The notes under the pieces are model-generated. The model was not told the origin of the DNA and ran no database searches. It saw only the letters and a program-made list of their open reading frames with translations. This document shows, piece by piece, positions 14,701 to 39,941 of a stretch of 64,000 bases of DNA. The DNA is taken from the NCBI GenBank assembly GCA_964593285.1, contig CAZQHZ010000003.1:1-64000 (forward strand). Direction: 5' to 3'. The DNA comes from an uncultured Methanosarcinales archaeon. Its GTDB lineage: Archaea > Nanobdellota > Nanobdellia > Woesearchaeales > DSVV01. A program made the position numbers and the translations under genes. The first letter of the stretch is position 1, and every line of letters starts with the position of its first letter.

Positions 14701-17700
14701 AAAGAGTTTTGTGGTTCAACAATAACAGATAAGTTATTTGCAATATTTGATTGTATAGTAAATGAGTCAGATTCTATATTTTTTCCTGTTTCCTCATATA
14801 TAAAATTAAGTCTATATGTTCCTGCTTTGTTTATTATTAAATTATCAAAAACAGCAATTCCTGATGTATTTGTTGTTTTTGTTGTTGTTCCTAAACTAAA
14901 GTTTCCACCTATAAGTTCTACAGTGACATTTTTTCCAACTTTTGGTTCACCTTTTTTTGTCGTTATTTTTACACTTGGTGGGCCTTGAATTGTTTGTCCT
15001 GCTGTTGTGTTTTTTGGTTGTTTTATTGTAATATTTTGTTGTATATATTTTATAATAATTATCCCAGATCCTCCATTAGCTCCTGGAACATCGTTATTAC
15101 CTCCACCACCACCACCGCCTAGGCCATCGATTCCATTTGTTGGAACAATATTAGTGTTTCCACCAGTTCCACCTCCGCCAAGACCACCAACACCAGGGTC
15201 ATTTCTATTTTGAGCAGCACCACCTCCGCCCCCACCAGCATAATATGTTGGTATTCCTGTAATGTTTATTTCAAGTCCATCACCACCTTTAGTTCCAGGG
15301 TCATCACTATTACAAGATCCGTCTTCTCCAGCACTTTCTGCACCACCCCCTCCTGATGCAGGACCTCCTGCAGGACTATTTGGACAGTTTCCTCCTCTGT
15401 TACCAAATCCTTTAGAAATGCTTCCTGGTTGTAATGAAATTCCTCCTGGGTTTCCACGACTTCCACCGCCACTACCTCCTGAATTTCCTTGCATGTTTCC
15501 ACCAGCTCCACCACCTCCTCCAATTGCAGTTAAATTTGCAAAAGTACTATTTTCTCCATTTTCCCCTGGTGTATTTCCTAATATTGGAGCAATTCCTCCT
15601 TTGCCAACCTTTAGTTGAATAGGATTTGAAAATTGGCTTATATTAAAATCTTCAATATAAATAAGGCCTCCAGCACCACCACCACCAGCTCCCGCATTAC
15701 TATAACTAAGGCTTGATCCACCAGCTCCACCACCACCAACAATCAAAATATCAATTAAATCAATACCTTCTGGTTTTGTCCAGTTATGTGTACCTACTGT
15801 GTCAAATATTTCTACATTATATATTAATTCTGATGTGGGATCTATTATATGATCAAATTCTATTGAACCATTGATTATTTTTAAATCAAAAGAATTTTGT
15901 GTTTTAATTAAATTTGTTAAATATACTTTATTGTATTCATTTGATTTAATATTTTTAAATTCTGCTAACTTTTCATTTGAATCAATTTCATATATTTCAA
16001 TAATAGGATTACCAGAAACTATTTTTGGAAAAATTGTAATATCATTTTTATTTGTTAGATTTTTTTCAAATGTAACTCTTATGTATTCTTGGTTTTTAAT
16101 TACAGAGCTCCATATATCATCTAATTTAAAAACTTGTTCATAAATATCTTCTATGAATGTTTTATTAGAATCAAGGTGGTGTGCTGAAGTGATTTCAATT
16201 ATTATTTCAAATGTTTGTGTTGATAGATGAGGGACAATCCATTCAATATAGTCAATAAATCCATCGTTATTTGTATCATTTACTAAAAAATCAATAAATT
16301 TGTCCTCTTCAATCCAAAATAATTTTATTTTATCTTTTTCTTCTATTTTAATTTTTTGATCAATATTTGTATGTGAAATAATATTTTCATAACCATACTC
16401 TTCATCACTATAAACAATAACTTTTTTTCCTTTATTTGTTTTTTCTTCTATTTTTTGTGGTGCTGAGGTTTTATATTTAATTTCTAAATTATTTACTTCT
16501 TCTGCAATTTGTATTGATTTTTCTTCTAAATTAATGTTTCTATTTACTTTTTCTTTTAATAATTTATTTTTTGAAATTGTTTTTGTTTTTTTAATATCTT
16601 CTATTATTTTTGTTTTTGATTCAACTTCATTAATTAATGGTTCATGTTTTATTTTTTCATCTTTTTTTCTTTCATTAATTATTATTTCTTTTGCATTTTT
16701 TGGAATTAATAATTCAATTTTTTCTTTGTTTTTATTTTCAATATTAATAGTCCATGAAACATTTTTTCCAATCCTTATTTTTTCATTTTGGATATCTACA
16801 TATGTATTATTAGGGGTATATTTAATTTCAAAAAAATTACTTTCAATAGTATTTATATTGTTGGTTGCAACTATTGAAATATTAGTTTTTCCAAATAAAT
16901 TTTCTTTTGGTTTAATATGTAATTTATTTTCAATGATGTTTATATCAAATTCATTAGTAATTGGTACTAGAAATGTTAAATCTTCTGATGAATTAAAATA
17001 TTCATATAAATTAATAATATATTCTTCATTATCAAATAAAGTAATGTTTGGTATATTTTTTATTAATAAAATTTCATCATCTTTTTCTATAATTTTTGTT
17101 TTATTGTTTGTTTTATTTTCTTTTGTTTCATTAATTAAATAAAATGTAGTATTTTTTGATTTTATTTTTTTATCATCTAAATTTGCTGTTATTTGTATAT
17201 TATATTTTCCAAAATCTATTGCATTAAAAAAATCTGTTTCATAGATGTTGTTATTATTAAAATCAATCATTTTTTGTGTAATTTGTCCATTTTCCCATTT
17301 TATTTTTGCATTAATATCTTGTAAATTTATATCATCATTAATTTTTGCAACAATTTGAATAAATTCATCTTTAGTGAAATTAGAATTATTAATTGGTGAA
17401 ATAATTTCTATTATTTCTTCATCAATTTTTGTTTTATTTTCAATTTTTGTTTCGTTTGCTTTTTCATTTTTTATTTTTGATTCTTCTTTAGTTGAAACAT
17501 AAAAACTTTGATTTATAGTTGTTATCATTTTATTATCTATATTGTATGCATTAACTAAAATTTCATATTCACCTTCATTTATTAATGAGATAAAAATTGT
17601 TTCATGGAGATTTTCTTTTTTAGAAAAGACTAAATTCATTTCTGTTCCTTCATGAATTAATTTTCCATTTATTTTTTCAATTGTTTTATTTGTTGTTTTA

Positions 17701-18427: not shown

Positions 18428-19333
18428 TTAAATTTCAATAATTCCATGTGTGAATAAATCAATTCTTTTTAAGCCAATTTTATTTTTTATTTTTTCAATA
18501 TTTTCTCCATTAAGATAATTAGTAATAATGTAATTTTTTCGAAGACTATTACAAGTTATTTTTTGGTTTAATTTTTTAGATATTTCATTAAAAATTTGTT
18601 GTACTCTTCTTTTTGTTAATTTTTTATTTTTTTTGTTAGAAAATAAATATTCGTCATCTTTTTTATTTTTTGAATATTTTTTTATTAAATTTATTGTATT
18701 TTTATCTATGTTAAATTCTATTTTTGAATCTTTAAATCTGATAAATATTTTATTTTTAGTTATATCTTTTTTTTTAATTTCAGTAATTTGTGATGTTTTA
18801 CATCCTGTGTTTTTTATTATAGAATAAATTAAAAAATCTCTTTCATTAATTTTTAAATTGGTATAATTTATTGAATCTATTTTTTTAATATTATTTTGTT
18901 TTTTTATTTTTATGATTTTATTTTTTGAATTTAAAATTATTAATTGTGTTTTTAGTAGTTTTAATTTATGTGGAGTTATTTTTATTTTTGTTTTTATTGA
19001 TAATTCTTTAAAAATTTGTTCTATTCTTCTTTTTGATAATTTTTTATTTTGATTATTTTCAAATAAATAATCTTCATTGTTTTTATTAGTTATTAACTCT
19101 TTTAATATTGTTAGTAATTTCTTTTCAGTTATTTTTTCTTTATGTTTGTTAATTGTAATTTCATTTTTTATTATCTTAATATCTTTTTTTTTTAAATTGA
19201 TAATTTTAGAACTATTTTGATTGAATAAAAAAATTAGATTAAAAATTAGATAATCTCGTTTATTTTGAATATTTTCTTTTAAAATATTAAATTTAGTTTC
19301 AATTTCTTTTTGCTTTTTTAAGCAATTATTCAT
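18428..19333 (-). CDS. Degenerate tyrosine recombinase/integrase-like protein with two tandem catalytic-domain copies
   Basis: Twice RDxLI…KKxDI…YLFxN…KKLS/TKRRxxQIF…KIT(P/C). Catalytic residues altered (TGCK, HKLK, NSLR; no evident terminal Tyr). Confidence 0.7.
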   Translation of the reverse strand: MNNCLKKQKEIETKFNILKENIQNKRDYLIFNLIFLFNQNSSKIINLKKKDIKIIKNEITINKHKEKITEKKLLTILKELITNKNNEDYLFENNQNKKLSKRRIEQIFKELSIKTKIKITPHKLKLLKTQLIILNSKNKIIKIKKQNNIKKIDSINYTNLKINERDFLIYSIIKNTGCKTSQITEIKKKDITKNKIFIRFKDSKIEFNIDKNTINLIKKYSKNKKDDEYLFSNKKNKKLTKRRVQQIFNEISKKLNQKITCNSLRKNYIITNYLNGENIEKIKNKIGLKRIDLFTHGIIEI

Positions 19334-23967: not shown

Positions 23968-25680
23968 ATGAAAAAATTTTTTAAAAAATCTCAAACTGCA
24001 GGAACTGCAGCTTCTTTTATTGCAATAATTGCAGGTTTTTTATTATTATATTTGTTTTTGATACCACCAGATTTACGAAATGATTTATTAAATGATCAAC
24101 CAATAGATGATGATAACAATAAAAATAATAATAATGAAAATGATTTATTTTTTGATAAATTTAATAAAACTTTATTATCTGTTGTTCCTGGAAGAATTGA
24201 TTATTTGAAACAATCACAATTTGAGCATAACATTCCTTCAGTTTATTTATATACAACAACAAGTGCAAAGGAAGAATTGATTTCTAATGTTGTTTTTGTA
24301 AAAAATAGTATTTTTGATAGAGAAAATGAAGAAGTTACCTTTGATATACCTAGTTTAAATCAGGTAGATAATTTATATTTTATGTTTTCTTTAGGGTCTA
24401 ATGCAAATAATAAAGGTGTTCTTTCAATTTATTTAAATGATAATTTAATTTATAGTCAAAAAGTAAAAAGTGAAGGTTTAACTGAGCCATTATTATTACG
24501 GAAAAATTTTTTAAAAACAAATAATGTTTTAAGGTTTGAAGTTTCTAATGTTGGATATAAATTTTGGACAACTAACGAATATAGGCTTAATAATTTGCGT
24601 TTATTTTATGATTTTACTGATCTTACAAGTCAGGAGAGCAAATTAACATTTATGCTTGATGAATCTGAAAAGTTTAATTTACAATCAGCTATTTTTAGAT
24701 TTAATGCAGATTGTAATCCACATGAAGTTGGTGTTTTAGATGTTAGAATAAATAATCAAAATGTTTTTTCTTCAGTTCCAGATTGTGGAAGTATTAATCA
24801 AGTTACAATTTCACCTCATATTTTAGAAGCTGGACAAAATAATATTGTTTTTGAAGCACAAAAAGGACATTATTTAATTGATCAAATATTAATTAAAACA
24901 AATATGAAAAGTATGTCATATCCAACTTATAATTTTTATATAGATGAATCATTATTTAGAGTTAAAAAAGAAAGTACAAAAACTCCAATGTGTGGTGATG
25001 TTGATGGAATTTGTCCAAGTGATTGTGCTGAACATTTAGATGAGGATTGTTGTTTATTGGAAACTTCTAAGTATTGGTGTCCTATTTTAACTGAAAATAA
25101 TAATGATAGGTGTAGGATTGTTAGAAGTGCTGACGATTGTGAATTGTGTCCTGCAGGTTATGTTGATAAAGATGGTAATGTTCCAGAGTTGTGTGAAGGG
25201 ATGTGTGGAGATAATAATGATGGTGATTGTCCTTTAGATTGTAATAAAAATTATGATAAAAATTGTTGTTTTGAGGATTCACAAGAAAATTATTGGTGTA
25301 GTGTTGTTCCAAAATATGGTAGTGAACATAGATGTAAGCGTTCATTGCATGTGAGTCAATGTTTTATTTGTGAAGAAGGCGACTGGATTTCAAAAGAAGG
25401 TAAATTTGATTGTCCTAATGAAGAAGATGATTTTGAAGAAACACATTCTTTTAGAGAAGGATATGAAGCATGGCTTAAGATGGACTTTTTTGATGATGGA
25501 CAAAGAAAAGCTGCACGAATTTATGTTAATGGTTATCAAGTGTTTTTAGATATTACTGGAAGTGAATATGAACGAAATATTGCTAATTATTTAGAACCTG
25601 GTTCTAATTCAATTAAAATTGAACCACAAGTTTCTAATTTAGATATAAATAAATTAGAAATTGAAGTAAAACAAAAATAA
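23968..25680 (+). CDS. Class III signal peptide (prepilin-like) surface protein with two Cys-rich repeats
   Basis: MKKFFKKSQ then hydrophobic helix; repeated beta domains (L..G.N.I.F); 2x CGD..DG.CP.DC….D..CC……YWC. Confidence 0.65.
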   Translation: MKKFFKKSQTAGTAASFIAIIAGFLLLYLFLIPPDLRNDLLNDQPIDDDNNKNNNNENDLFFDKFNKTLLSVVPGRIDYLKQSQFEHNIPSVYLYTTTSAKEELISNVVFVKNSIFDRENEEVTFDIPSLNQVDNLYFMFSLGSNANNKGVLSIYLNDNLIYSQKVKSEGLTEPLLLRKNFLKTNNVLRFEVSNVGYKFWTTNEYRLNNLRLFYDFTDLTSQESKLTFMLDESEKFNLQSAIFRFNADCNPHEVGVLDVRINNQNVFSSVPDCGSINQVTISPHILEAGQNNIVFEAQKGHYLIDQILIKTNMKSMSYPTYNFYIDESLFRVKKESTKTPMCGDVDGICPSDCAEHLDEDCCLLETSKYWCPILTENNNDRCRIVRSADDCELCPAGYVDKDGNVPELCEGMCGDNNDGDCPLDCNKNYDKNCCFEDSQENYWCSVVPKYGSEHRCKRSLHVSQCFICEEGDWISKEGKFDCPNEEDDFEETHSFREGYEAWLKMDFFDDGQRKAARIYVNGYQVFLDITGSEYERNIANYLEPGSNSIKIEPQVSNLDINKLEIEVKQK

Positions 25681-25761
25681 TTTATTTCTTATATATTAAT
25701 ATAAATAGAAACAATTAAATATTATTTAATTAATGAAATGATTTAGATAGTTAGAAGAATA

Positions 25762-28700
25762 TTGAAATTNNNNNNNNNNNNNNNNNNNNNNNNNNNNNNN
25801 NNNNNNNNNNNNNNNNNNNNNNNNNNNNNNNNNNNNNNNNNNNNNNNNNNNNNNNNNNNNNNNNNNNNNAATCAACAATCAAATGGTCAAGCAGAAAATA
25901 AAAAACCATTTGTTGATAATTCAAAAAAGGCTTATAATGATGATTTAGAAAGAGATAAATTAAAACTAGAAATTGATGATTTAAAAGGGAAAAAAAAAGA
26001 TTCTAAAAGAGAAAATATTGGTAAAAATTTTGAATTTTATAAAGATAGGCATGGAGGTTTAATTTTTATAATTTTAGCATTATTTATACATCTTATAAAG
26101 TATGGTTTGAATTTTAATGTTGGTGCAACATGGATTTTTGATGTTTTATTTGCAATTATTGTTTATTTTTTTATTTTTACAAAAATTGATAGAGATAGCA
26201 AAGGTCTTAGAAGTATTTTTATTATTTTGTTTTTAGAAGTTTTTTTATTGATGATTTTAGGATATTTTGATTTTTTATATGAAAATAAATATGTTCAATA
26301 TTATTTATTTAATAGGTTACTTACACCTTGGTGGTTTTATTTTGCATTAATTTATGCAAATGGTGCAAATAAACCTAGCAAAATTATTCATTTTTTTAAT
26401 TTACTTGTTATAGCTTTTTGGATTGGTGTTATTTTATCAATTCCTGCTGTTAGTTTTGCAAATGTATCTTTTCCTGATTTTGCAAATCTTCCACAATCTG
26501 ATAAATTTTTTGATTTATATGAAAAATCTAAAAATTTTTGGTTTACACAAATTCCTAGTTTAATTTCTGATGGATTTAAAAATCTAGGAAATGAATGGCG
26601 AAGACAAATAAGTATTGCAACGGGTGGTTATTATGTTGGCACGGTTGATAAATATCAAGATGAACCACTTGGGGTTTATATTGATAGTTTAAGACCTACA
26701 GCTCCTGAATTTTCAACAGATAATCCTGTAAGTGTTAGTGCAAGACTTAGAGTATTAACACTTGATGATGGAATTAAAGTTAATGTAAGTTGTTATACTG
26801 ACACTTTAGTTAGAAATCAAAAACTTAAAGCAAGCAAAGTTTATCCAACAGAAGCAAGAACTTATTATAAACAAGAAAGTGAAAATATTGATTGTATTTT
26901 TGATGCGGGTAGATTTAATGATCGAGGAATTCATAAAATAACTGTTGCAGCTGATTTTAATTTTGAAACGTTGGGCTATAAAAAATCTTATTTTATGGAC
27001 AATGAAAGAATGAGGGCTTTGGTAAATGAAGGAAAAGATCCATTAAGAGAATTTGGAATAACTGATAGAAATCCAAAATCTATTTATACAAATGGTCCTG
27101 TAATGATTGGAATGAAAGTTGATGGTTTAATTGGTTTAGACGAATATCAAAGTAGGGATTATAGTTTTGGAATTACAATTGAGCCAAATACTGGTTGGAG
27201 TGGTTATATAAAAAAATTAAATGAATTATTGATAATGGTTCCAGAAGCTTTTGATTTAGATGTTCATTCATGTACGGCTGATTTTGATAAAATAGAAAAT
27301 AATGATTATCAAAATCAATGCGTTGAAGGTTATAAAAAATATCATTCAAGACAATTAAATGATTGTTTAGATGAAGCAGATATTTCAACAAATCATTTTG
27401 ATTATGAAGAGGGTGATTTTTATGATACAGCATTAGTTTCTGATAAAATAAGTGATTTTGAAAAATGTTTAATAAATTATTGTAAAGAAGAAACAGAAGG
27501 TTATAATATATATTCATTAAATGTTTCAAAAAATCCTTCTGAATTTGAGGATATAAAAGAATTTAAAACATTTAATTGTAGATTTCGTGAAAAAGATATT
27601 AATGAAACATTGGGAAATAATCCTCTTGCAACACACTATTTTTTATCAAAAGCTAGGTATGATTATGTTTTAGAAGATGATGTTAATGCTCAAATAAAAC
27701 AAGGAACAACTCCTCATAAGACATATGAACCGGGTTCTAGTAGTTGTAATTTAAAAGTTTCACAGTTTTATGAAGAAATTTCTGAAGTTGTAGAATTAAT
27801 TAATCAGAAATTAGAAGTTCCAGAAATAAATGATGAATCTTTATTAACTGAATGTATTATTGCTTCAATTATATTTCATGAATCTTGTGGTGATCCAAAT
27901 GCACGAAGTCGGGCAGGTGCAATAGGTTTAATGCAATTAATGCCTACAACCGCAGAGGAAATTGTTGATAAAATTTTAAGAGATAAAGATTTAAAAGAAC
28001 ATGCAGAAAGTATTGGTCTTAAAAGATACAATTTAGAAAATCCAAAACATAGTATTTTGCTTGGTACATATTATTTTGCTGAAAGATTAAATAGTGCTAG
28101 TAGTAAAATTTCAAAAGAAAGAAAAAATAGAGATGAGGAAATTTTAAATTATGCTCTTTCAGAATATAATGCAGGTCCTGGAAGTGGAACTAGTTCTTGT
28201 AGAGATGATAATGGGGAATATATTTTGTTTTCTGAATGTTTTAGTAGTAATTTAATACCAAAAGAAACACAAGAATATGTTAGTGAAAAAGTATTACCAT
28301 TAAATAGAAAATGTGAAAGCGGAGAAGTTACTTTTTTAGTAGAATTAAAACAAGAAGATAACGAGGAGTTTGGAGAATCTGAAAAAAAATTATATTTTTA
28401 TTACAAAAAGGAAGATTTGTCTAATTTTGCTGATAATATTAAGATAGATGAAGATCAACAAGATAATATAGCTGGGTTTAAATATCAAATTTTGGATTTA
28501 ATAAAAGGTAAGGAAGATTATATTAAAAAAGATGTAGTTGATGATTTTTTAATTGAAAAAAAAGAAGAAACATCACAAGTAAACTCTCCAACTCTTCCAA
28601 TGACTGATTTAGAAAATTTGCAAGAAGAAGTAATACGATTTACTGATTCAATTTCAAAACATGTTTATATCAAACCATTTGAAATTGAATTAGATGGAAC

Positions 28701-29573
28701 AAAATATAAATTGAATTTAAATGAACCTTTCAACTTATTAATTGATGAAGATTATGAAATAAAAGATATTAAATTGATTTATAATAATTTGTTAACTACT
28801 TCAATTGATGATATTTCAACAAACCCAAAAAGAAAAAAAGCAATTGATGATGGTTTTTATATTTTTGGTAATAATCCTTTTGTTTTGGTAAAATTAGAAA
28901 AAATTGAAAATGNNNNNNNNNNNNNNNNNNNNNNNNNNNNNNNNNNNNNNNNNNNNNNNNNNNNNNNNNNNNNNNNNNNNNNNNNNNNNNNNNNNNNNNN
29001 NNNNNNNNNNNNTATATTTTTGGTAATAATCCTTTTGTTTTGGTAAAATTAGAAAAAATTGAAAATGCTTTAAAATTATCTGTTAAATATCATAAAGGTT
29101 TTATTAAAAACACAAATAATTTTGATATAAGTGTTCAAAGAAACATACAATCCATTTCTCTTAATACTTTTAATTTACTATTAGAGCCATCAATGAATCA
29201 TGGTTTTTCGAAAACCAGTTTTAATTTAGATTTAAGTTTGAATGATTTAAATATTTGTAATTTAATTTTTGATGAAAATTTTATTGAAAAATATTGTAAA
29301 GTTGATTTTACTAATTATCAAATTATTGGTTTATTAATGAGAAATAAAGAATACAATCCAAATAATTATAAAGCCACTATTCAAGTAGAATATAACCCTA
29401 ATTTTGAACATAAATGTTGTAGTAATCCAAAAAGTTGTATAGATCATAAAGATGGGAATTACATGCTTGCAACTTGTGATTACAAAAAGGCAAAAGAGAA
29501 TGGATGTGAAATTAAAAAAGCAATTATTAGAAATAAAGATACTTTTTATTGTGATGATTATGAAACGAACTAA
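25762..29573 (+). CDS. Large multi-TM protein with lytic transglycosylase (SLT) domain; one gene split by a scaffold gap
   Basis: About 5 TM segments. SLT motifs HES, GAIGLMQLMPTTA, NPxxSIxxGxxY, YNAGPG, ETQEYV at about 27850-28295. A 55-bp duplication (28858-28912 = 29013-29067) joins ORFs 25762..29046 and 29040..29573 in frame. True start obscured by Ns at 25770-25869. Confidence 0.85.
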
Positions 29574-30507
29574 ATATTTAATCTTTGTATTTTTTGTGGT
29601 TTTGTTAGTTTTAACTGCATGTGAGCCACGAGATGATGATTTTTTAAAATTAGAAGATTTACGAAAAGGAAGTGATGGTATAAATGTTATTTACACTGAA
29701 AATTCACCACCAAGAGAAGTTACTCAAGAAACTAATTTTAATATAAATGCACAAATTCAAAACAAAGGTGCATATAATACTAATGGGTTTTTATTATTAA
29801 CTGTTGAAAATGATTTTGTTGAAAATGATGAAAACCCTAGAAAAGAAATTAATTTAGATGGAAAAAGTTTACATAATCCTGATGGTGATAAAAAAAATAT
29901 TTTATTTAATTTAAAATCAAAAACTCCTAGAGCTCAAAAGACAAAACATGAAACAACAGTTATTTTAACAACATGTTATAACTATTCAACTTTTTTTCAA
30001 GATGATATATGTATAGATCCAAAGGCTTATTCAACTACCACCCAATTTGATAAAGTGTGTGAATTTAAAGACGAAACTTATAGAAATCAAGGTGCACCGA
30101 TTGCTGTTAAAAAAATAGAATTGATTCCAGAAACAAATAGGGATGATAATATTAAATTAAGATTTAATATTCATGTTGAAAATGTTGGAAAAGGAAATGT
30201 TTTAGGTTATGAATTTATAGAAGATGCTTGTAGTTCAAAGTCTGTAGATAGAACTAAATTAGGTGTTGTTCATATTGATCAAATAATTATTGGTGGATAT
30301 GAATATAGTATGGAAGGTAATGAAAACACAATTGAATGTTTTGATGATGAGATTAAATTATCAAGAGAAAAAGGAATTTTTAGATGTGAAATAAAAAATC
30401 CATTAGATAGCTCATCACCAGAATATATGGCACAAATGGAAGTTAAATTAAAATATGGTTATACTCAAAGTTTTTCAAAATCTTTTTTTATTGAGAGGAG
30501 AATTTAA
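29560..30507 (+). CDS. Lipoprotein, paralog 1 of 4
   Basis: Start moved to MKRTKY; lipobox VLTAC; NKGAY, CYNYxT, QGAPIAV, ENVGKG. Confidence 0.8.
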   Translation: MKRTKYLIFVFFVVLLVLTACEPRDDDFLKLEDLRKGSDGINVIYTENSPPREVTQETNFNINAQIQNKGAYNTNGFLLLTVENDFVENDENPRKEINLDGKSLHNPDGDKKNILFNLKSKTPRAQKTKHETTVILTTCYNYSTFFQDDICIDPKAYSTTTQFDKVCEFKDETYRNQGAPIAVKKIELIPETNRDDNIKLRFNIHVENVGKGNVLGYEFIEDACSSKSVDRTKLGVVHIDQIIIGGYEYSMEGNENTIECFDDEIKLSREKGIFRCEIKNPLDSSSPEYMAQMEVKLKYGYTQSFSKSFFIERRI

Positions 30508-31461
30508 ATGAAAAAAATATATTTTTTAATAATTTGTATTTTTATTATTTCTTGTAGTAACCAGCAGCAAAATTTGGATTATGATAGTGGAACTACAGGG
30601 ATTGTTGCAAATTTTGAAGATAAATTAGATCATACAATTTATGAAGGGCAAGATCTTTCTCTTGTTGTTAATTTACAAAATAAAGGTTCGTATGATGAAG
30701 CTTATGGAAGAGTTATTTTGAGTGGTTTTGATAGGCATATTATGCCTTTTAGAGAATTAGTTGCATATGATAATTATGCAGTTCATTATCTACCTGAACT
30801 TGAATCAAGATCTCCTTATAATATTGATGGAGGTTTTGATACAGTTAGTTTTGAAATTCCAAAAAATAGTATATATTTATCTGATTTTGAAAAATATGAA
30901 CCAAATTTGATGCTTAGTCTTTGTTATTATTATGAAACTAAAGCTACACCAAATGTTTGTATTTCTTTGGATCCATTTAATTCAAAGTCAAAAATATGTG
31001 ATCCTTTTAAGCCAATTGTTATGCAAAATCAAGGTGCACCTGTTGCTGTAACCAGAGTTGAACAGGAAGTTATGGCTGATTTTACAACTTTTATTGTAAC
31101 TGTTGAAAATGTTGGAGAAGGAAATGTTATTACACCAACTCAAGAAAGTGCTGATGCATGTCCATTAAATTTAAAACATGATGATTTAAATGAGTTTGAA
31201 TTTGAAATGAAACTTTCAAATACTCAAAATCCAGAATGCACTCCAAATGGTCGAGCAAGATTGGTTAATGGAAAGGCGGTTATTTTTTGTAAATTTCAAT
31301 TAAGACCAGAATTTACAAAGAATCATAATGAAGAAATTGGAGCTGAAATGTATACAAAACAGTTAGAAATAAATATTAAATATTTTTATAATACAAATAC
31401 TTATAAAAAACTAAAATTGGCAAAACAGCCTGGAACTTATCAAAATACCAATATTGATTGA
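30508..31461 (+). CDS. Lipoprotein, paralog 2 of 4
   Basis: Lipobox IISC; NKGSY, CYYYET…VC, QGAPVAVT, ENVGEG. Confidence 0.8.
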   Translation: MKKIYFLIICIFIISCSNQQQNLDYDSGTTGIVANFEDKLDHTIYEGQDLSLVVNLQNKGSYDEAYGRVILSGFDRHIMPFRELVAYDNYAVHYLPELESRSPYNIDGGFDTVSFEIPKNSIYLSDFEKYEPNLMLSLCYYYETKATPNVCISLDPFNSKSKICDPFKPIVMQNQGAPVAVTRVEQEVMADFTTFIVTVENVGEGNVITPTQESADACPLNLKHDDLNEFEFEMKLSNTQNPECTPNGRARLVNGKAVIFCKFQLRPEFTKNHNEEIGAEMYTKQLEINIKYFYNTNTYKKLKLAKQPGTYQNTNID

Positions 31462-32414
31462 AAATGAATTATAAAAAATATATTTTAATTTTGTTGTTTA
31501 TTTTACTTTTATTTAGTTTAGTTTCTTGTGTTGTTCCAGATGAGGATGTTTTAGACTTAGATTATAGAACAGGAAATTTAGGTTTATTAGTTAATTTTAT
31601 GTCAGGGGCTGTTCCTGATAGTATTTATGAAAATCAAGATTTAGAAATTGTTGCAGAAATTAGAAATGTTGGTGCTTTTAATGAACCTTCTGGAAAAATA
31701 TATCTACATGGTTTTGATGCAACAGTTATTTCTTTTGATAGAAGAATTCAATCAAAAGATGGTGTTGAATTAAATTATTTATATCAAGAAATTCCAAAGA
31801 TTATGGGTAAAAGTGCTTATCAAGATGGAGGATATGATAGAGTATCTTTTGTTGCATCTAGTTCTGATATTAATTTAAAAAGTTCAAAAACTTATAATCC
31901 AAGATTTATTTTAAGTACATGTTTTAATTATAAAACTGTTCTTTCACCAACAGTTTGTATATTACCTGATAGTTCTGTTTTGAAAACTTCTAGTGTTTGC
32001 AAGCCATCAACAATAAGTTTGTCAAGCCAGGGTGCACCTGTTGCTGTAACAAAAGTTGAAACACAAGTTGTTGGTAATAACAATAAATTTTATATAACAA
32101 TTGAGAATGTTGGCAATGGAAGAGTTATTTTAAATAATGAAGAATCGTTTAGCAATTGTCCTTTAAAATTAGAAGATACTGATTTAGATATTGTTGAATT
32201 TGAAGTTAAGATAGATAATTTAGAAAAACCAGTATGTTATCCAGAAGGTAAAGTTAAGTTATTTAATGACAAAGCGAGGATTGAATGTGTTTTTTCAACA
32301 TTAAAAGATAATGAAAAAATTGTTTCATCACCTTATACTACCCCACTTCAAATTTCATTAGATTATAATTATTTAATTTCAACAAAAAAGGAAATAAAAA
32401 TAATTCCAACTTAA
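31458..32414 (+). CDS. Lipoprotein, paralog 3 of 4
   Basis: Lipobox LVSC; NVGAF, CFNYKT…VC, QGAPVAVT, ENVGNG. Confidence 0.8.
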   Translation: MKMNYKKYILILLFILLLFSLVSCVVPDEDVLDLDYRTGNLGLLVNFMSGAVPDSIYENQDLEIVAEIRNVGAFNEPSGKIYLHGFDATVISFDRRIQSKDGVELNYLYQEIPKIMGKSAYQDGGYDRVSFVASSSDINLKSSKTYNPRFILSTCFNYKTVLSPTVCILPDSSVLKTSSVCKPSTISLSSQGAPVAVTKVETQVVGNNNKFYITIENVGNGRVILNNEESFSNCPLKLEDTDLDIVEFEVKIDNLEKPVCYPEGKVKLFNDKARIECVFSTLKDNEKIVSSPYTTPLQISLDYNYLISTKKEIKIIPT

Positions 32415-32522
32415 TATTTATTTATAAATTAATATGTGAATAAACCAAAAATTATTTAAATATATTTTAAAATAATATAAATAATCTTGTTTATTTTATG
32501 AAAAAAGGAGGATTTAATAAAT

Positions 32523-33452
32523 ATGAAAAATTTCAAATTTTGCAATAAATTATTATTAATATTGGTGTTAGGATTGTCTGTTTTTATTTTTGGGTGTGAT
32601 CAAGAAGATAAAACAGGGTCGCCATGGCTTGGTGGGTATGAAGGATTGGTTGTGGAATTTGAAAAAATAGATCAGACAACTGATTTTACTGGTTCATTTA
32701 GCCAAGTTTGGGAAGATGAAACATTTCCTGTTTTTATTTATGTTAATAATAGAGGAGAGTATGAAGTGCCTGCAAATGATGTTTTTTTTGAAATTAAAGG
32801 TATTGCATCATCTGATTTTTCTGGGTTGAGTTTTACTAAAAGAAATTCAGAAACAATTGAAAGAGTTTCAGAATTTATGCCTAATGGTGGTGAAACTTAT
32901 GTTGATTTTGGAAGTGCTAAATATAATAGGTTAGTTGGAACTCATTATGATGCAGAAATTTTCATATATTATACATATCCTTACAAAACAACAGTTAATG
33001 TACAAGATGTATGTTATAAGTACGATCCAAAAGATACTACTATTTGTAAAGTTGATAGTGTGCGTTCTGCACATGCTTCAGGTGGCCCTATACAGATTGG
33101 TACAGTAACTCAAAGATATATTGGAAAAGGAAGTATTATTGTTGAAATTCCTATTAAAAATGTTGGTAAAGGAAAAGTTAAACCTGCTGAAAGTCATGAA
33201 TTTAATTCAGTTCATGATGAGATATATTTTGAAACTAATGATAGAGACTGGGAATGTCGTTCTAGAGGAAACCCAAGTATTGCGCGAATAACTCATCAAG
33301 ACGGTGTTAGAAGTAATACTGAAACAGTTATTTTATGTACTAATAGAAATGTTGAAGCTGGTGCAAATTATCAAAAAGCTGTAACTTTAGAATTAACATA
33401 CTATTATCAAGATTGGATTTCTCATAAAATTAGAATTAAAGAAAATCCATAA
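32523..33452 (+). CDS. Lipoprotein, paralog 4 of 4 (most divergent, own promoter and SD)
   Basis: Lipobox IFGC; NRGEY, YPYKT…VC, SGGPIQI, KNVGKG; AAGGAGG upstream. Confidence 0.8.
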   Translation: MKNFKFCNKLLLILVLGLSVFIFGCDQEDKTGSPWLGGYEGLVVEFEKIDQTTDFTGSFSQVWEDETFPVFIYVNNRGEYEVPANDVFFEIKGIASSDFSGLSFTKRNSETIERVSEFMPNGGETYVDFGSAKYNRLVGTHYDAEIFIYYTYPYKTTVNVQDVCYKYDPKDTTICKVDSVRSAHASGGPIQIGTVTQRYIGKGSIIVEIPIKNVGKGKVKPAESHEFNSVHDEIYFETNDRDWECRSRGNPSIARITHQDGVRSNTETVILCTNRNVEAGANYQKAVTLELTYYYQDWISHKIRIKENP

Positions 33453-33483: not shown

Positions 33484-34452
33484 TTATTCTTTGTTTATAG
33501 TAGTTAATGTAAAATTTGCAAGTAATGCTTCTAGTTGCAGATATTCATCAGATCCTTCAGTCATTCTAAATTCAATATCACCACATTTATCGACTAGAAA
33601 AACCTTATCTTTTTCTAAAATATTTAAATTCCAAATTTCTCGTTGTATTTGTTTAATTATATCAATTCCAGAAAGTCCATATTTTAGCATTGTTTTAAGT
33701 AATAATTTTCTTGATTCAATAAATTTTTTATTAATTGCAAGTTCTAATATTTGAACTATTTCTTTTGGTTTTGCAAATGATGCCATAGAAAAAATTTCTT
33801 CTTGTGTTATTGTTTTATTTAATGATGAACTACTTTGAAGAATATTTTCAGCACGCCTGCAATCCCCATTAGAAATTTGATATAAAGCTTCTTTTGCATC
33901 GTTATTAATATTTAATTCTTCATTTTTTGCAATATTATCAATAATTGTGAATATTTCCTCTTTTTTTAGTGGTTTAAATCTAAAAATAGTACATCTTGAT
34001 TGTATTGGGTCGATTATTTTTGATGAATAATTGCAACTTAAAATAAATCTAGTTGTTTGTGTATAATTTTCCATAGTTCTTCTTAGGGCTTGCTGCGCTT
34101 CTTTAGTTAATGCATCACATTCATCTAAATAAATTATTTTAAATGGAACGTTACCTATTGCTTTTGTTCTTGCAAAATCTTTAACTTTATTTCTAATTAT
34201 ATCAATCCCTCGCTCATCTGAAGCATTTAATTCCAGAGTATTTTGTCTATATTCATCTCCAAATAATTCACGAGCAATAACTAATGCAAGTGTTGTTTTA
34301 CCAATCCCAGCAGATCCTGCAAACATTAAATGTGGCATATTTTTTTGTTTAATAAAAGCTTTAACTTTAGAAACAATATCTTCTTGTCCTATAATATCTT
34401 TGAATTTTTTTGGTCTATACTTTTCAGTCCATATTGCATTTTTATCAATCAT
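33484..34452 (-). CDS. rfcS: Replication factor C small subunit
   Basis: WTEKYRP, GxAGIGKTT, LELNASDERG, LDECDAL, AQQALRRTME, IQSRC. Confidence 0.97.
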   Translation of the reverse strand: MIDKNAIWTEKYRPKKFKDIIGQEDIVSKVKAFIKQKNMPHLMFAGSAGIGKTTLALVIARELFGDEYRQNTLELNASDERGIDIIRNKVKDFARTKAIGNVPFKIIYLDECDALTKEAQQALRRTMENYTQTTRFILSCNYSSKIIDPIQSRCTIFRFKPLKKEEIFTIIDNIAKNEELNINNDAKEALYQISNGDCRRAENILQSSSSLNKTITQEEIFSMASFAKPKEIVQILELAINKKFIESRKLLLKTMLKYGLSGIDIIKQIQREIWNLNILEKDKVFLVDKCGDIEFRMTEGSDEYLQLEALLANFTLTTINKE

Positions 34453-34552: not shown

Positions 34553-34825
34553 TTAAATTATGTCTTCTTCTGCAATTACCATAAAATCGCCTATTGCAAT
34601 AACTGCACTAAAAGGAATTAATATATTATTTGATTTATCTTTTTCAAGTTCTAGTTTTTCTGTATAAGTTGTTGGGTTTTTTAATAACATATGTATTAAT
34701 TCACCAGATCTTGTTTCAAATATTATATCTCCAACTTCGCCAAATCTTTTTCCAGATTTGCTTACAACTGTTTTACCTATTAATTCTTTAGAAAATCTTT
34801 TATCATCTTCAGCCATTTTATTCAC
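34553..34825 (-). CDS. PRC-barrel protein (CdpB-like)
   Basis: LIGKTVVSKSGKRFGEVGDIIF…G…IPFSAVIAIGD. Confidence 0.85.
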   Translation of the reverse strand: MNKMAEDDKRFSKELIGKTVVSKSGKRFGEVGDIIFETRSGELIHMLLKNPTTYTEKLELEKDKSNNILIPFSAVIAIGDFMVIAEEDII

Positions 34826-35176: not shown

Positions 35177-37300
35177 ATGTTTAAAAAATTATTGATACCA
35201 ATTCTTATACTTGTTGTTTTATCTACATTTGCATTTGCAGATTTGCCAAATAGGCTCAATATTACTATGTCTGAAATAGTATATAATAATATTACTTATG
35301 CTAAAGATTTTTATCTAGAAGAAGAAAATACATTTTGTGAAATTCATGGTACTTTAAATATAACTAATCCAAGTGAAGATACTGTAAATACAATTTATAT
35401 TGAATTTGTAAATTATGAACGAATGATTACTGATTTTGTTTTAGTTGATGGTAGGAATGCAACTAAATCTTCTGGAAGTTTAGCTACTGAACAAGAATAT
35501 GGTAGGATTGAAAGTGGAATTAATAATGTTGAATTAATTCAAGATTTAGATGATGATAATTTAATAGATTATATGTATGTTAATTCAACTCATTTAATAT
35601 TTAATTTAAGTTCTGAATCAAATTTACTTTCAATTCCGTTTGGTCAAGATATTTCTAATGCAGGTACCACTCCAGTTACCTTGAATTTAATTAATCAAAC
35701 TTTATCAGGAACAAAAGATTATGCAAATGTTACAATAATTGGTGAAACAGATGAAAATAATGTTTTAACTGAAAATATGGAAATTTTCATTAAAGAATTT
35801 ATGTATGGCCCTATTGTTTTATTTATTCCAGAACTTAGAAATAATAATTATACAACATTTATCTATAATATTACATGCGATGGAACTGAGCCACCTGTAA
35901 AAATTTCTACAAATTATTCTAATTTAGATCATCCTGATATAAACCGAAAAGTTCTTGCAGGACATAATTGGACAGTAACACAGTATGCAAAAAATAATTT
36001 ATATTTAGGACATGATGTTACAAATATAAATATTACAATGAATTCACAACCTGTTGTTTGGAATGAAACTGAATTTGATTTTTATTTGCGAAATTTATTT
36101 CCACTTGGAGATTATACCAATGTACATGGAAATGGAACATCAAATAAAACTTGGTGGTGGCAACCAAATGGTGGAATACTTAATGCTGATGAAGAAGTAA
36201 ATGTTAGTTATACTATTCAAGCACCAGAATCAGTTCCTTTTACTGCAACTTTTTTAGCATTAATTGAAAATATTTCATATGATGCACCATTTTTAATGTC
36301 AAATTTAACTATTAATGAAATTAATGCAACTGCAGAAATTAATAATAAAGCACAAAAACGAATTGTTCAACCTGCAGATGATGAAGAAAATAATAATGTT
36401 ACATGGGGTGCAAATGCAGAAGTTAGTGTTCCAATTAATATTAGTTATGAATTATTTAAAGTAAGTTTGTGGGTTACTAGTGTAGGTGGTGATCCTAATG
36501 AAGATACTGGATTGAATCGTACATATAATAATAGTATAAATGTTCCTTTAGTTGAATTAAATTTATCAGATAAATGGGAAGGTAGTGAATGGCTTTTTAA
36601 TTACACAGATTCCACAGATCCGCCAGTTGTTTGGATTACGCCTGAGTGGAGAATAAAAAATAAATATGGTCAAATACTTAATTTTTCAAGAACTGTTAGT
36701 GGAGAAGACTTATATATGAAATATATTTATGTTGTTCATGGATATTGGCTTGAAATTGAAAAAAATATTACAAGTATTGGCGAAGATCAATATCATGTTT
36801 TTACTTATGTTGAAAATATAGGTAATGGATGGACACCAAAAGATGAATTTGTTACTGTATATGATTTTGTTCCAATTGAATTTAGTGCGTGGAACTTTTC
36901 AATTGAGGATGATATGATTAATCAAACTGTGGGTGATCCTACTACAAATTATTATGGTATGTCATATAGGTGGAATATCCCGCCAAAGCCTTTGATGAAT
37001 TCATCACTTGGTCCAAAAAATGGTCCTGATAAAACAGGTCCTGGAAATTATTCATGGAATGTATCATACATAGTAAATGGTACTGGTGATTATCGGGCTT
37101 CAGAATTATATATTGTTGGTTTAGACCCACTGAAAGTTGATGGTGCATTTACATCACCTGTTATTTCAGTAATTTCGGGGCTACAAACTTATTCAAAAGA
37201 ATTAATTTATGTATCAATTTTTGGTTTACTAATAGTTATTAATATTGCAAATTTATTTATAACTAGTAATATTAACAAAAAACTTAAAAACCATAAATAA
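35177..37300 (+). CDS. Membrane-anchored surface glycoprotein (S-layer-like)
   Basis: Signal peptide, abundant NxT/S sequons, beta-rich, C-terminal TM and basic tail. Confidence 0.7.
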   Translation: MFKKLLIPILILVVLSTFAFADLPNRLNITMSEIVYNNITYAKDFYLEEENTFCEIHGTLNITNPSEDTVNTIYIEFVNYERMITDFVLVDGRNATKSSGSLATEQEYGRIESGINNVELIQDLDDDNLIDYMYVNSTHLIFNLSSESNLLSIPFGQDISNAGTTPVTLNLINQTLSGTKDYANVTIIGETDENNVLTENMEIFIKEFMYGPIVLFIPELRNNNYTTFIYNITCDGTEPPVKISTNYSNLDHPDINRKVLAGHNWTVTQYAKNNLYLGHDVTNINITMNSQPVVWNETEFDFYLRNLFPLGDYTNVHGNGTSNKTWWWQPNGGILNADEEVNVSYTIQAPESVPFTATFLALIENISYDAPFLMSNLTINEINATAEINNKAQKRIVQPADDEENNNVTWGANAEVSVPINISYELFKVSLWVTSVGGDPNEDTGLNRTYNNSINVPLVELNLSDKWEGSEWLFNYTDSTDPPVVWITPEWRIKNKYGQILNFSRTVSGEDLYMKYIYVVHGYWLEIEKNITSIGEDQYHVFTYVENIGNGWTPKDEFVTVYDFVPIEFSAWNFSIEDDMINQTVGDPTTNYYGMSYRWNIPPKPLMNSSLGPKNGPDKTGPGNYSWNVSYIVNGTGDYRASELYIVGLDPLKVDGAFTSPVISVISGLQTYSKELIYVSIFGLLIVINIANLFITSNINKKLKNHK

Positions 37301-37338
37301 ATAATTTTATTTTAAAAAAAAGAGGGGTTAGTGGTATT

Positions 37339-38061
37339 TTGATTTTATCAAATTTGAAAATAAACTTAAAATATTTAGTATATGTATTTATGTTTATTTT
37401 TGTAATAAATTTTTGTTTAGGAGAGATTGTTGTATTTAATAATTATGAAACTACAATTCATTTGCAAGATGGCAAATTACATGTAATTAAGGAATTAACT
37501 TTAGAAAATGTTGGTTCTGATCCTATAATTCCTGGTGAATTACATTTTAAAATTCATGAATTAAAAAAAGGTGAGAAAATTCCTTCCGAAATTTTAAATT
37601 TTAATACTATAAATGGTCGTGATCAAGAATTAGATTCTAGAGTTATTGAAGGTAATACTGAAACAGATTTGGTTGTAAGTGTTTGGGAGCCAATTTTACC
37701 TAAATTTAGTTATAAAATATTTTTAACTTATGATATTGTTTTTGAACCGAAAGGTTTTTTGTTTTATGAATTTAATGTTCCAACTGAAGATACTACAATT
37801 CCTATAAAAAAAAATCAAAATATTGTATTAATTCCTTCAAATTATAAAGTTACTTTTGCAAAAGATGCAAGTGTTAGCCAAGTTACTAAAGATGATAAAA
37901 AGTTTAGTGAAGTAAAATGGACAAATACTGGTAATATGGTTCTAGAATATTCTAAAATACCCTTGCCAAAAACAGGTGTTAAGGCTGTAAATTTATTTTG
38001 GAGCGTGATAATTATTTTAACAATTTTGGCAACATTTATTATTCATAAAAAATTAAGATAA
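37339..38061 (+). CDS. Membrane-anchored surface protein
   Basis: Signal peptide, beta domain, C-terminal TM with HKKLR. Confidence 0.7.
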   Translation: MILSNLKINLKYLVYVFMFIFVINFCLGEIVVFNNYETTIHLQDGKLHVIKELTLENVGSDPIIPGELHFKIHELKKGEKIPSEILNFNTINGRDQELDSRVIEGNTETDLVVSVWEPILPKFSYKIFLTYDIVFEPKGFLFYEFNVPTEDTTIPIKKNQNIVLIPSNYKVTFAKDASVSQVTKDDKKFSEVKWTNTGNMVLEYSKIPLPKTGVKAVNLFWSVIIILTILATFIIHKKLR

Positions 38062-38084
38062 TTATTTGGAGGAATTTTAAAAAA

Positions 38085-39941
38085 TTGAAATTTTATTTAT
38101 ATTTGTTAATTTTTTGTTTACTTAGTTTTTCTGTTTTTTCTAGTACTGAAGGTTTTTTTATGGATATTTTTGAAAAAGGGAAAGTTGTTAATTATTATGA
38201 TGAATATTATGTTGTTCAAATAAATGGAACAATTAATGTTACAAATAATTATAATTCTACAATGTTTAATATTGAAATACCATTTAATTTAGATACATTA
38301 AATATTTTTGAAGTAGATACAAATTTTATTGATCAAAATAAATTTAGTTTTTCAATGTTTGATCCTTTTGAAACAAAAACTTTTGATTATGAAATTCGTG
38401 GAATTACTGCATTTGATCCAATGAAACAAAATAAAAATGTTTTAGCTTCATCTATTTTAATTGATGAGGTTTCTTTGCATTCTTTAATTATTTCTAAGTT
38501 GAATAAAGCAGATATTGAAGCAGTTGATATAAATACAAGTGATGTAAAAAGTGTTGCAAAAAGAAGACTTATTACTGTTTCATTAGAAAATCCAACAAGT
38601 GCTGAATATAATGTAACTTCAATAACTGTTTTAAAAACTCCTGATTTAGATCCAAATAATATAGTTAATCAGTGGGATTTACTTGATGATGTTTTAATAT
38701 TAAAGGAAAATCAAAAATATGAAGAAGATATTGTGGATTTTGATGCTAAACCAAATGATGTTTATTGGCTTACAACAAAAACAGACACCCATTTTAATTT
38801 ATTTTTAAATTCAAACAATAGTATTTTAAGATATAGTCAAGATGATTTACTAAGTCCTGAAAATATAACTGTTTCAATTAATGGTACACAATTTAATGTA
38901 AGTGAATATTTAGAACATATGTTATATGTTAAAAAATCCTATTCAGATACACATATTTTTCCAGGGGACTTAATTGAAGTTGATATTAGGATTAACAATT
39001 TTGCTCCAATTAATAGAAATGTTACTGTTAAAGATTTTTTGCCACTTGGGTTTTTATTTGATTCAGGTAATGAACCAACAAATGCTGATGGTAGTGAATT
39101 AGTTTGGCAAATTAATATAAATCCTGAAAGTACTAAAAGACTTACGTATAATTTAAAATATGTTGATGAAGAAATGCTTGGTGTTGATTATTTTAAGCCT
39201 GCAGAAGTAATTTATGATGGTGGTGTTTTTTATACGAAAAGAACATCTTTTATTAGAAAGTATATCCCTGATAAAAAAATTTTTGTTCAAAAAAAAGTTA
39301 AAGAATCACTAAATGATGAATATGTTGTTGAAATTTTTGTGCATAATGTTGGAGAATATGGTATTGATAATTTAATAGTTAAAGAATTTTTAAATACAGA
39401 TGATGTTTTTCGGGAAATTACAATAATGCCTAAAGATAAGGGATTGTGGGATATTGAAAATTTAAAAAAGTCTGATGTTTGGAAAGTTTCTTATATTACA
39501 GATAAAAATGATGCATTATTTTCTTTACCTCAAATTATAGGAATTGATGAAAGCGTTGTTATGAAGACTTTAATTTTTGAACATGTTATTAGAAATGAAT
39601 GGAGCGAGAGTGCTGTTAAATTTATTGAAAAGTTTGGTTTATTTATTTTAATTTTTCTACCTTTATTGTTAATTATTTTAAACAGGATGCGTAGAACATA
39701 TAAAGAAAGAAGTTTTAAGAAAATGTCTAAACAAATTAATAAATTAAAAAATGATTCAACGCCTGATATTATAGATTCTATTGACTATTTGCGAAAAGAA
39801 GCTAATATAAAAACAGATTTTCCAGTTAGTGAAAAATTTAATGGAGATAATTATAAAAAACCTGTTAGTAAAAATGATTTTAAAGATGAAGTTAAGCATA
39901 ATATGGATGATTTAGAAAAACTAAAAAAGGATTTAAAATAA
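38085..39941 (+). CDS. Membrane-anchored surface protein with DUF11-like Ig domain
   Basis: VKKS…PGD.I.V.I.I.N…NVTVKDFLP.GF…LVW; TM followed by charged tail. Confidence 0.7.
   Translation: MKFYLYLLIFCLLSFSVFSSTEGFFMDIFEKGKVVNYYDEYYVVQINGTINVTNNYNSTMFNIEIPFNLDTLNIFEVDTNFIDQNKFSFSMFDPFETKTFDYEIRGITAFDPMKQNKNVLASSILIDEVSLHSLIISKLNKADIEAVDINTSDVKSVAKRRLITVSLENPTSAEYNVTSITVLKTPDLDPNNIVNQWDLLDDVLILKENQKYEEDIVDFDAKPNDVYWLTTKTDTHFNLFLNSNNSILRYSQDDLLSPENITVSINGTQFNVSEYLEHMLYVKKSYSDTHIFPGDLIEVDIRINNFAPINRNVTVKDFLPLGFLFDSGNEPTNADGSELVWQININPESTKRLTYNLKYVDEEMLGVDYFKPAEVIYDGGVFYTKRTSFIRKYIPDKKIFVQKKVKESLNDEYVVEIFVHNVGEYGIDNLIVKEFLNTDDVFREITIMPKDKGLWDIENLKKSDVWKVSYITDKNDALFSLPQIIGIDESVVMKTLIFEHVIRNEWSESAVKFIEKFGLFILIFLPLLLIILNRMRRTYKERSFKKMSKQINKLKNDSTPDIIDSIDYLRKEANIKTDFPVSEKFNGDNYKKPVSKNDFKDEVKHNMDDLEKLKKDLK

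Follow-up and report, generated by a model that had tools for sequence, protein, structure and literature searches.

Positions 1 to 64,000 of contig CAZQHZ010000003.1 (assembly GCA_964593285.1), the whole stretch of DNA analysed here and called the window, come from an uncultured archaeon of the order Woesearchaeales (named in GenBank as Methanosarcinales) with a low-GC genome of 1.18 Mb that is 95.9% complete. We studied six co-oriented genes on its plus strand, A to F (23968-33452), which encode a protein with a pilin-type N-terminus (A), a membrane protein carrying a GH23-type lytic transglycosylase (SLT) domain (B) and four lipoproteins (C to F). Our main finding is that the SLT domain occupies a variable slot behind a scaffold of B, and that the complex to which this scaffold is predicted to belong, counted as five genes, is conserved across several DPANN phyla. 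We favor a reading of the operon as an ancestral DPANN cell-contact platform whose tip would be tuned to the wall of a partner, here bacterial murein, and we put the chances of this reading at about even.

The content of the slot was tallied across 140 fetched loci, comprising 40 from a search with the B protein, which are biased toward the family of the window, and 100 of the 150 matches listed from a search with the scaffold profile, which were chosen by scaffold alone; nine incomplete B copies received no call, leaving 131 assessable. An SLT domain above the cut-off follows the scaffold in 34 copies, another murein hydrolase in nine, a sub-threshold SLT in four, some other tail in 44 and nothing in 40, and thus 43 of the 131 copies carry murein-hydrolase domains above the Pfam cut-off, from eight Pfam families. 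The hydrolases other than SLT are GH73 (L046 and L069), Amidase_2 (L045), a PF11860 muramidase joined to an amidase (L140), M23 (L052 and L089), M15_4 (L060), NlpC/P60 (L097) and 3D (L144), and database homologues of B add tails that combine SLT or GH73 with an amidase. The 44 other tails include 13 of one immunoglobulin (Ig)-repeat-like type as well as fn3, cysteine-rich and degenerate lysozyme-like modules (the last in L043, L098 and L100). A domain scan covered the 61 tails of at least 70 residues among the later 100 loci, in which 21 of 93 assessable copies carry a hydrolase, whereas none of 46 other N-anchored proteins of the same loci, a small control, carried such a domain. Judged by the motifs that we take to be diagnostic, metal-binding or catalytic residues are retained by the amidases of L045 and L140, the M23 domains of L052 and L282, the M15 domain of L060 and the GH73 domain of L046, and a B copy from the Aenigmatarchaeota phylum carries an intact M23.

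We then placed these tails on a FastTree phylogeny of 134 scaffolds, which left out 7 of the 140 loci with partial scaffolds. The hydrolase label requires 19 changes on this tree, at least eight of them forced by its starred branches; the scaffolds of L060 (M15) and L144 (3D) are sisters with a support of 99, and the SLT present in L063 and L079 is missing from their close relative L077. Amidase, M15 and M23 enzymes act on the stem peptide of murein, which chitin and S-layer glycans do not possess, and since these families converge on one position, murein is favored more strongly than by SLT alone. The occurrence of unrelated murein hydrolases at the same position in relatives therefore supports the murein target that an earlier, sequence-only reading of the window had predicted for its SLT domain.

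That reading had also described the SLT domain of the window as complete, and our searches agree. The domain (27850-28295) matches PF01464 at 27850-28185 with an E value of 4.7e-16 and 58.8 bits against a Pfam cut-off of 21.3, and its HES, GLMQ (27925-27936), YNAG and ETQEYV motifs are all present in the translation; the catalytic Glu of the E-S pair is kept (27880-27882). The predicted model adopts a lysozyme-like fold that matches MltC (4C5F; Z 17.5, root-mean-square deviation (rmsd) 2.7 Å, 174 residues), MltE (4HJY; Z 17.0) and 5O2N (Z 16.9), and its fold matches also include a GH23-fold chitinase and a GH124 cellulase. Fold and motifs are thus shared with the family 1 lytic transglycosylases (PF01464/GH23; E. 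coli MltC, MltE and Slt70, 1QSA), whereas here the domain follows a membrane scaffold in one protein of an archaeon, an organism that has no murein, and scores below every whole-protein NCBIfam cut-off. We regard the domain as having a lysozyme fold and intact motifs, with an extracellular location being most likely. A second SLT in the window genome lies in a 409-residue frame with an N-terminal hydrophobic segment (L261:2752-3978; G000:C10:20751-21977).

Gene B (25870-29573) encodes about 1320 residues in full, its start lying inside an assembly gap, and consists of a charged N-terminus without a signal peptide, a membrane anchor of four to five transmembrane helices (26059-26457), the conserved scaffold (26599-27705), the SLT domain and a C-terminal region without a known family; copies range from 440 to 1380 residues. 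Four helices of the anchor exceed the hydropathy threshold and the fifth follows from loop charges, the topology being based on simple hydropathy and Lys/Arg counts of the loops. Given the helix count and loop charges, the paralogy of the scaffold with the lipoproteins and the conserved cysteines, we infer that scaffold and SLT face the outside of the cell and not the cytoplasm. Support for the paralogy itself comes from a broad lipoprotein profile, which matches the scaffold in 134 of 150 B copies (E < 1e-3), and from models of B and of lipoprotein E, in both of which two beta-sandwich domains have long shared strands; a profile-profile comparison of profile A1 with the narrow lipoprotein profile A2 gave a weak match (probability 10%). 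The AlphaFold2 model of the B ectodomain covers 598 residues with a pLDDT of 91.9.

The lipoproteins follow B in close succession, with C (29560-30507, the first paralogue) overlapping the B stop by 14 nucleotides, D (30508-31461, the second paralogue) abutting C, E (31458-32414) overlapping or nearly abutting D, and F (32523-33452, the last paralogue) spaced 108 nucleotides from E. A lipobox-Cys signal peptide is present in all four and, by pattern, in 316 of 345 homologues, so that lipid attachment is predicted. Three lipoproteins are found in 98 of the 140 order loci and four or five in 5 of the 140; the four of the window derive from duplication of the second paralogue, giving the pair D/E where most relatives carry one gene. 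The model of E has a pLDDT of 93.6 and a pTM of 0.89. Searches of lipoproteins and scaffold against solved structures gave a best Z of 10.1 (rmsd 2.0 Å over 103 of 294 residues, to a macroglobulin-type Ig domain) and Foldseek TM scores of at most 0.28, and family searches returned generic Ig-like and weak CARDB matches but no known family or solved relative.

We next modeled the B scaffold together with C and E. This three-chain model reached an ipSAE of 0.75, compared to 0.52 for the best control, and thereby backs the multi-subunit complex that had been proposed for these genes; at least 86% of contacts are shared between its runs, and partner pLDDT is at least 83. Among solved pairs 116 of 157 attain this ipSAE mark, compared to 2 of 215 mismatched pairs, and these counts serve as a rough guide for a three-chain job with custom alignments. 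The best control retained C and E, so the predicted C-E contact contributes to the score, which B raises further. In the most confident predicted contacts, residues 151-154 and 341-347 of B meet residues 59-63, 113-117, 203-206 and 284-286 of C, and 22 of 30 interface columns of E coincide with interface columns of C, the assignment of the C residues that touch E being our own reading. This arrangement suggests a head-to-tail chain in gene order. A search of the PDB returned no similar complex. Among 55 long lipoproteins, 54 carry no murein-hydrolase domain, and L158 differs in bearing its SLT on lipoprotein C rather than on B. At loci with a tail-less B (L129:2741-4843, L131:2294-4969, L120, L137 and L146), C is often extended by 100-570 residues of no known family, as if the variable module had been relocated.

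Gene A (23968-25680) encodes 570 residues that begin with KKSQ and a single hydrophobic helix, the short basic N-terminus, [KR][GAS] pair and following Q or E conforming to a class III (prepilin) signal; the loose pattern [KR][GAS][QE] recurs in 92 of 112 homologues. A conserved ectodomain of about 390 residues is joined by a lineage-specific cysteine-rich insert, and family and structure searches found neither a known family nor a solved relative. In 116 of the 140 order loci A precedes B on the same strand; its adjacency to B in the window genome is based on scaffolding and synteny. An A24 prepilin peptidase is found inside the fetched locus in 13 of 20 loci from other orders, compared to 0 of 140 in the order. 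These features suggest that A is a pilin-anchored accessory subunit of the complex.

Having defined the operon, we examined its distribution. The B protein search of relatives found 44 of 61 genomes, and the scaffold profile matched 223 of 301 genomes of the order (Woesearchaeales), a tally that includes ten unpublished genomes used for no other claim; the lipoprotein profile matched 152 of 153 other genomes of the order and 37 of 47 from other orders of the class. In 129 of 133 closed loci a lipoprotein gene lies no more than 3 kb behind B, and the order of the genes is kept across the fetched loci. Twenty loci from other orders combine A, a short B (369-500 residues in 17 copies, without a tail) and two lipoproteins. 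In the Aenigmatarchaeota phylum, which we defined through the record bearing that name, lipoproteins occur in 51 of 61 genomes, and among 20 fetched loci A was found in 7 and a B with multiple transmembrane helices in 10. The narrow profile A2 found no match in YN1, Nanopusillus acidilobi, Nanobdella aerobiophila, Nanobsidianus or MC-1, although rfcS was found in all five, and matched 2 of 21 Nanobdella-order genomes. This pattern had suggested that the operon is absent from archaeon-hosted DPANN, an idea overturned by the wider profile A7, which detected tandem lipoproteins in 9 of 9 named Nanohaloarchaeota, with best E values of 4.5e-22 to 2.4e-44, and clear matches (E <= 5e-13) in 5 of 10 class genomes missed by A2; G486 and G488 of the Nanobdella order likewise retain parts. 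In the five named Nanoarchaeota, A7 gave weak partial matches only (E 8.6e-5 or worse), and the remaining blanks may reflect profile sensitivity. A lies upstream in 5 of 5 Nanohaloarchaeota, and in the two loci examined a multi-helix B of 956-976 residues without a Pfam domain lies between; a search for SLT returned none in 5 of 5 Nanohaloarchaeota genomes and none in 21 of 21 Nanobdella-order genomes. Cultivated nanohaloarchaea live on haloarchaea (bioRxiv 10.1101/2023.02.24.529834), and the presence of the operon without SLT in this archaeon-hosted group therefore indicates that the core is independent of a bacterial partner. The SLT tail is optional and does not form the core. Separately, six loci of the Aenigmatarchaeota phylum (L275, L277, L282, L285, L286 and L287) contain a DUF63 membrane-protein gene within the operon, on the other strand, and an operon member at L276:8090-9349 has a C-terminal Hint-like domain below the cut-off.

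In the cell-contact platform that we favor, B would sit in the membrane with its lipoprotein-like scaffold directed outward. The lipid-anchored C, D/E and F would attach to it head to tail, following gene order, and the result would be a short chain, arc or ring, to which A would add an accessory subunit with a pilin-type anchor. At its end, B would present a variable, outward-facing slot matched to the envelope of the partner. In the window organism this slot contains an intact lytic transglycosylase that, where the two cells meet, would bind bacterial murein and cut it locally, pointing to a bacterial host or prey. A more tentative extension, possible but one we would bet against, is that this is a conserved host-contact apparatus of cluster 2 DPANN, a chain or ring of two-domain paralogues held in the membrane, with an exchangeable tip comparable to the receptor-binding or tail-lysin module of a phage; the repeated independent loading of hydrolases would then record repeated switches from archaeal to bacterial hosts, and for uncultivated DPANN the host domain could be predicted by the tip from genome sequence only.

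Several observations weigh against the cell-contact platform. Most B copies carry no recognizable hydrolase, the M23 of L089 and the NlpC/P60 of L097 lack catalytic residues, and the catalytic Glu is lost or shifted in 12 of 23 same-family copies. The GH23 fold also covers chitinase and cellulase, a surface SLT alone cannot reach murein behind an outer membrane, and the FastTree phylogeny contains long branches and non-independent kin. SLTs are also encoded elsewhere in 23 of the 40 tail-less genomes and in 21 of 37 other-order genomes, as well as in the second copy of the window genome, and B may be one of several SLT display sites, with SLTs grafted on many surface proteins. Finally, Nanobdella, Nanopusillus and YN1 attach to hosts yet have no convincing lipoprotein array, and therefore the complex is not required for attachment in all DPANN.

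Part of this evidence would fit a general envelope or housekeeping complex, such as a lattice element or an export or division assembly, whose hydrolases are opportunistic and serve to scavenge wall debris or deter bacteria without specific contact. The near-universal, single-copy occurrence in fixed order beside the housekeeping genes pelota and rfcS, the hydrolase-free operon of archaeon-hosted Nanohaloarchaeota, the SLTs on many other proteins and a patchy gain and loss like that of the weaponized hydrolases of PMC12352652 all speak for such a complex. We nevertheless consider it rather unlikely, as Ig-like repeats, fn3 repeats and cysteine-rich modules, which are typical of adhesins, are likewise found in the slot, dead SLT folds are retained across a whole sub-clade, which fits binding over scavenging, and three to four paralogues in fixed order are unlike the single-protein encoding of S-layers. 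The retained dead folds raise a further possibility, that the slot is mainly a lectin-like module for murein or another N-acetylglucosamine polymer (chitin or archaeal glycans) with catalysis secondary or absent. The lost or misplaced Glu of same-family copies, the degenerate lysozyme-like tails and the chitinase and cellulase among the fold matches are consistent with this idea, but the window copy retains all motifs and the stem-peptide target of the amidase, M15 and M23 tails does not exist in chitin or S-layer glycans, leaving it improbable.

The sequence-only reading had proposed a machine built around SLT and dedicated to breaching bacterial walls in the manner of type III and type IV secretion system transglycosylases. 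Of the 23 same-family copies, 21 have an SLT or SLT-like tail, which would agree with it, as would the B-C-E model. For the family as a whole, however, such dedication is already contradicted by the tail-less copies of the order (40 of 131), by the short, tail-less B of other orders, by the 44 other tails, by the Glu losses and by the SLT-free operon in archaeon-hosted lineages. EtgA and VirB1 are encoded with a trans-envelope secretion machine, whereas family scans found no secretion-system family and no ATPase, channel or needle gene among the six genes, and we regard this proposal as very doubtful. An artifact is the least credible account: the piece that contains SLT (25870-28912) is bounded by runs of N, and a 98% identical protein is labeled "bacterium" by NCBI, but scaffold and SLT share one gap-free frame, the separately assembled protein P0223 is continuous, and the same architecture recurs in many Woesearchaeota-labeled proteins and in genomes of the family, such that a bacterial or chimeric origin of this piece is barely conceivable.

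The step from SLT to bacterial hosts in Woesearchaeota is already published. Large SLT proteins have been reported in Woese- and Pacearchaeota, with bacterial hosts proposed (Castelle et al. 2021, PMC8204110), and the same inference appears for GH23 proteins in Vigneron et al. 2022 (PMC9723730) and in PMC10936187. The family fam00969 of PMC8204110 has a median length of 1947 residues, a signal peptide in 79% and one transmembrane helix; it resembles B in being an extracellular GH23/SLT protein of the same archaeal groups with the same host or prey inference, whereas B, with its shorter chain, multi-helix anchor and lipoprotein-like scaffold and without a signal peptide, is by these descriptions probably another protein. 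The accessible portions of PMC8204110 and PMC9723730 describe no operon, complex or swappable slot. The unannotated fam00214 of PMC8204110 (991 members, 370 residues, in 99% of Pacearchaeota and 91% of Woesearchaeota) might correspond to the lipoproteins described here. The bacteria-killing archaeal murein hydrolases of Strock et al. 2025 (PMC12352652), for which domain replacement is reported, are modular combinations of catalytic and wall-binding domains, many of them secreted, whereas B is membrane-integral without a known wall-binding domain and would fall outside the definition used in that screen.

Among host-contact systems, the conserved loci of cluster 2 DPANN in Hamm et al. (bioRxiv 10.1101/2023.02.24.529834) consist of CpaF, TadC, pilins and coiled-coil proteins. 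They share with this operon a similar taxonomic range, a proposed role in host interaction and, through A, a pilin-type N-terminus, but none of these protein families is found among the six genes, and the available text does not mention lipoproteins. Attachment organelles of YN1 and Nanobdella aerobiophila are reported as DPANN host-contact structures (PMC11420986, PMC11104419), and unlike the window organism these genomes contain no convincing lipoprotein array or A. Oligonucleotides and host names were taken from PMC3769629, PMC4935971 and PMC9040726, and all cultivated DPANN were reported on archaeal hosts in 2023 (bioRxiv 10.1101/2023.02.24.529834). Our literature search, with most subscription papers outside it, turned up no publication that describes the operon or the slot. 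The idea of SLT and bacterial hosts is thus known, while for the scaffold complex our searches returned neither a family nor a structure. The operon offers a concrete candidate machine for cross-domain symbiosis, and its core is present in Nanohaloarchaeota, which can be co-cultured. A slot that repeatedly acquires unrelated murein hydrolases is a candidate marker for cross-domain symbiosis, and if the tip is tuned to the partner, it may reveal the cell type on which each archaeon lives.

The assembly of the locus was inspected at two runs of 100 N inside B, which the sequence-only reading does not mention. The first (25770-25869) conceals the B start and the charged N-terminal segment, and the second (28913-29012) is false, because 55 nucleotides are duplicated across it and P0223 (1322 residues, from a separate NCBI contig) is identical to both B pieces of the window (1014/1014 and 186/186) and uninterrupted; a chimera or frameshift at these gaps was rejected on the same grounds. 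P0223 may derive from the same population and is taken as evidence of continuity, not of independent occurrence. Residues 1-140 of P0223 and 1-79 of P0003 are unrelated to each other, the proteins being otherwise 98-100% identical to B, and the divergence joins exactly at the edge of the first gap, which suggests that the end of B that is presumably cytoplasmic holds a cassette that varies between strains. P0003, which carries the "bacterium" label, probably comes from a mislabeled bin, and the named homologues of B are labeled Candidatus Woesearchaeota or Nanoarchaeota. The GC content of the six genes (0.22-0.30) is similar to that of the flanks, and no recombinase lies inside the cluster, with a tyrosine recombinase 4.6 kb upstream, in line with the earlier view of resident archaeal genes. 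The window sequence is present in microbial-mat metagenome runs from two studies, one possibly its source; no RNA datasets carrying it were listed, and a sigma-70 promoter scan, a model ill-suited to archaea, stayed at chance level.

Of the two flanking genes named in the sequence-only reading, cdc6 and rfcS, both are present in the window, but only rfcS (33484-34452, minus strand), a convergent neighbor outside the complex, is kept beside the cluster in relatives (97 of 140 loci); pelota is the upstream neighbor in 98 of 140, and cdc6 linkage was found in 0 of 140 and rejected as a conserved trait. A highly conserved PRC-barrel protein of 87-90 residues (window 34553-34825) stands beside rfcS in 77 of 140 loci, and archaeal PRC-barrel proteins are cell-division factors. 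Beyond these two genes, three co-oriented surface or membrane proteins of 707, 240 and 618 residues without a family occupy 35177-39941. Upstream of the cluster, a 4231-residue surface protein with three LamG, Gly-rich and Ig domains (5730-18425) lies directly behind a two-domain tyrosine recombinase (18428-19333), and the minus strand at 281-2604 carries four tandem similar open reading frames of 178-199 residues with alike N-termini, two of which were scanned and matched no Pfam family.

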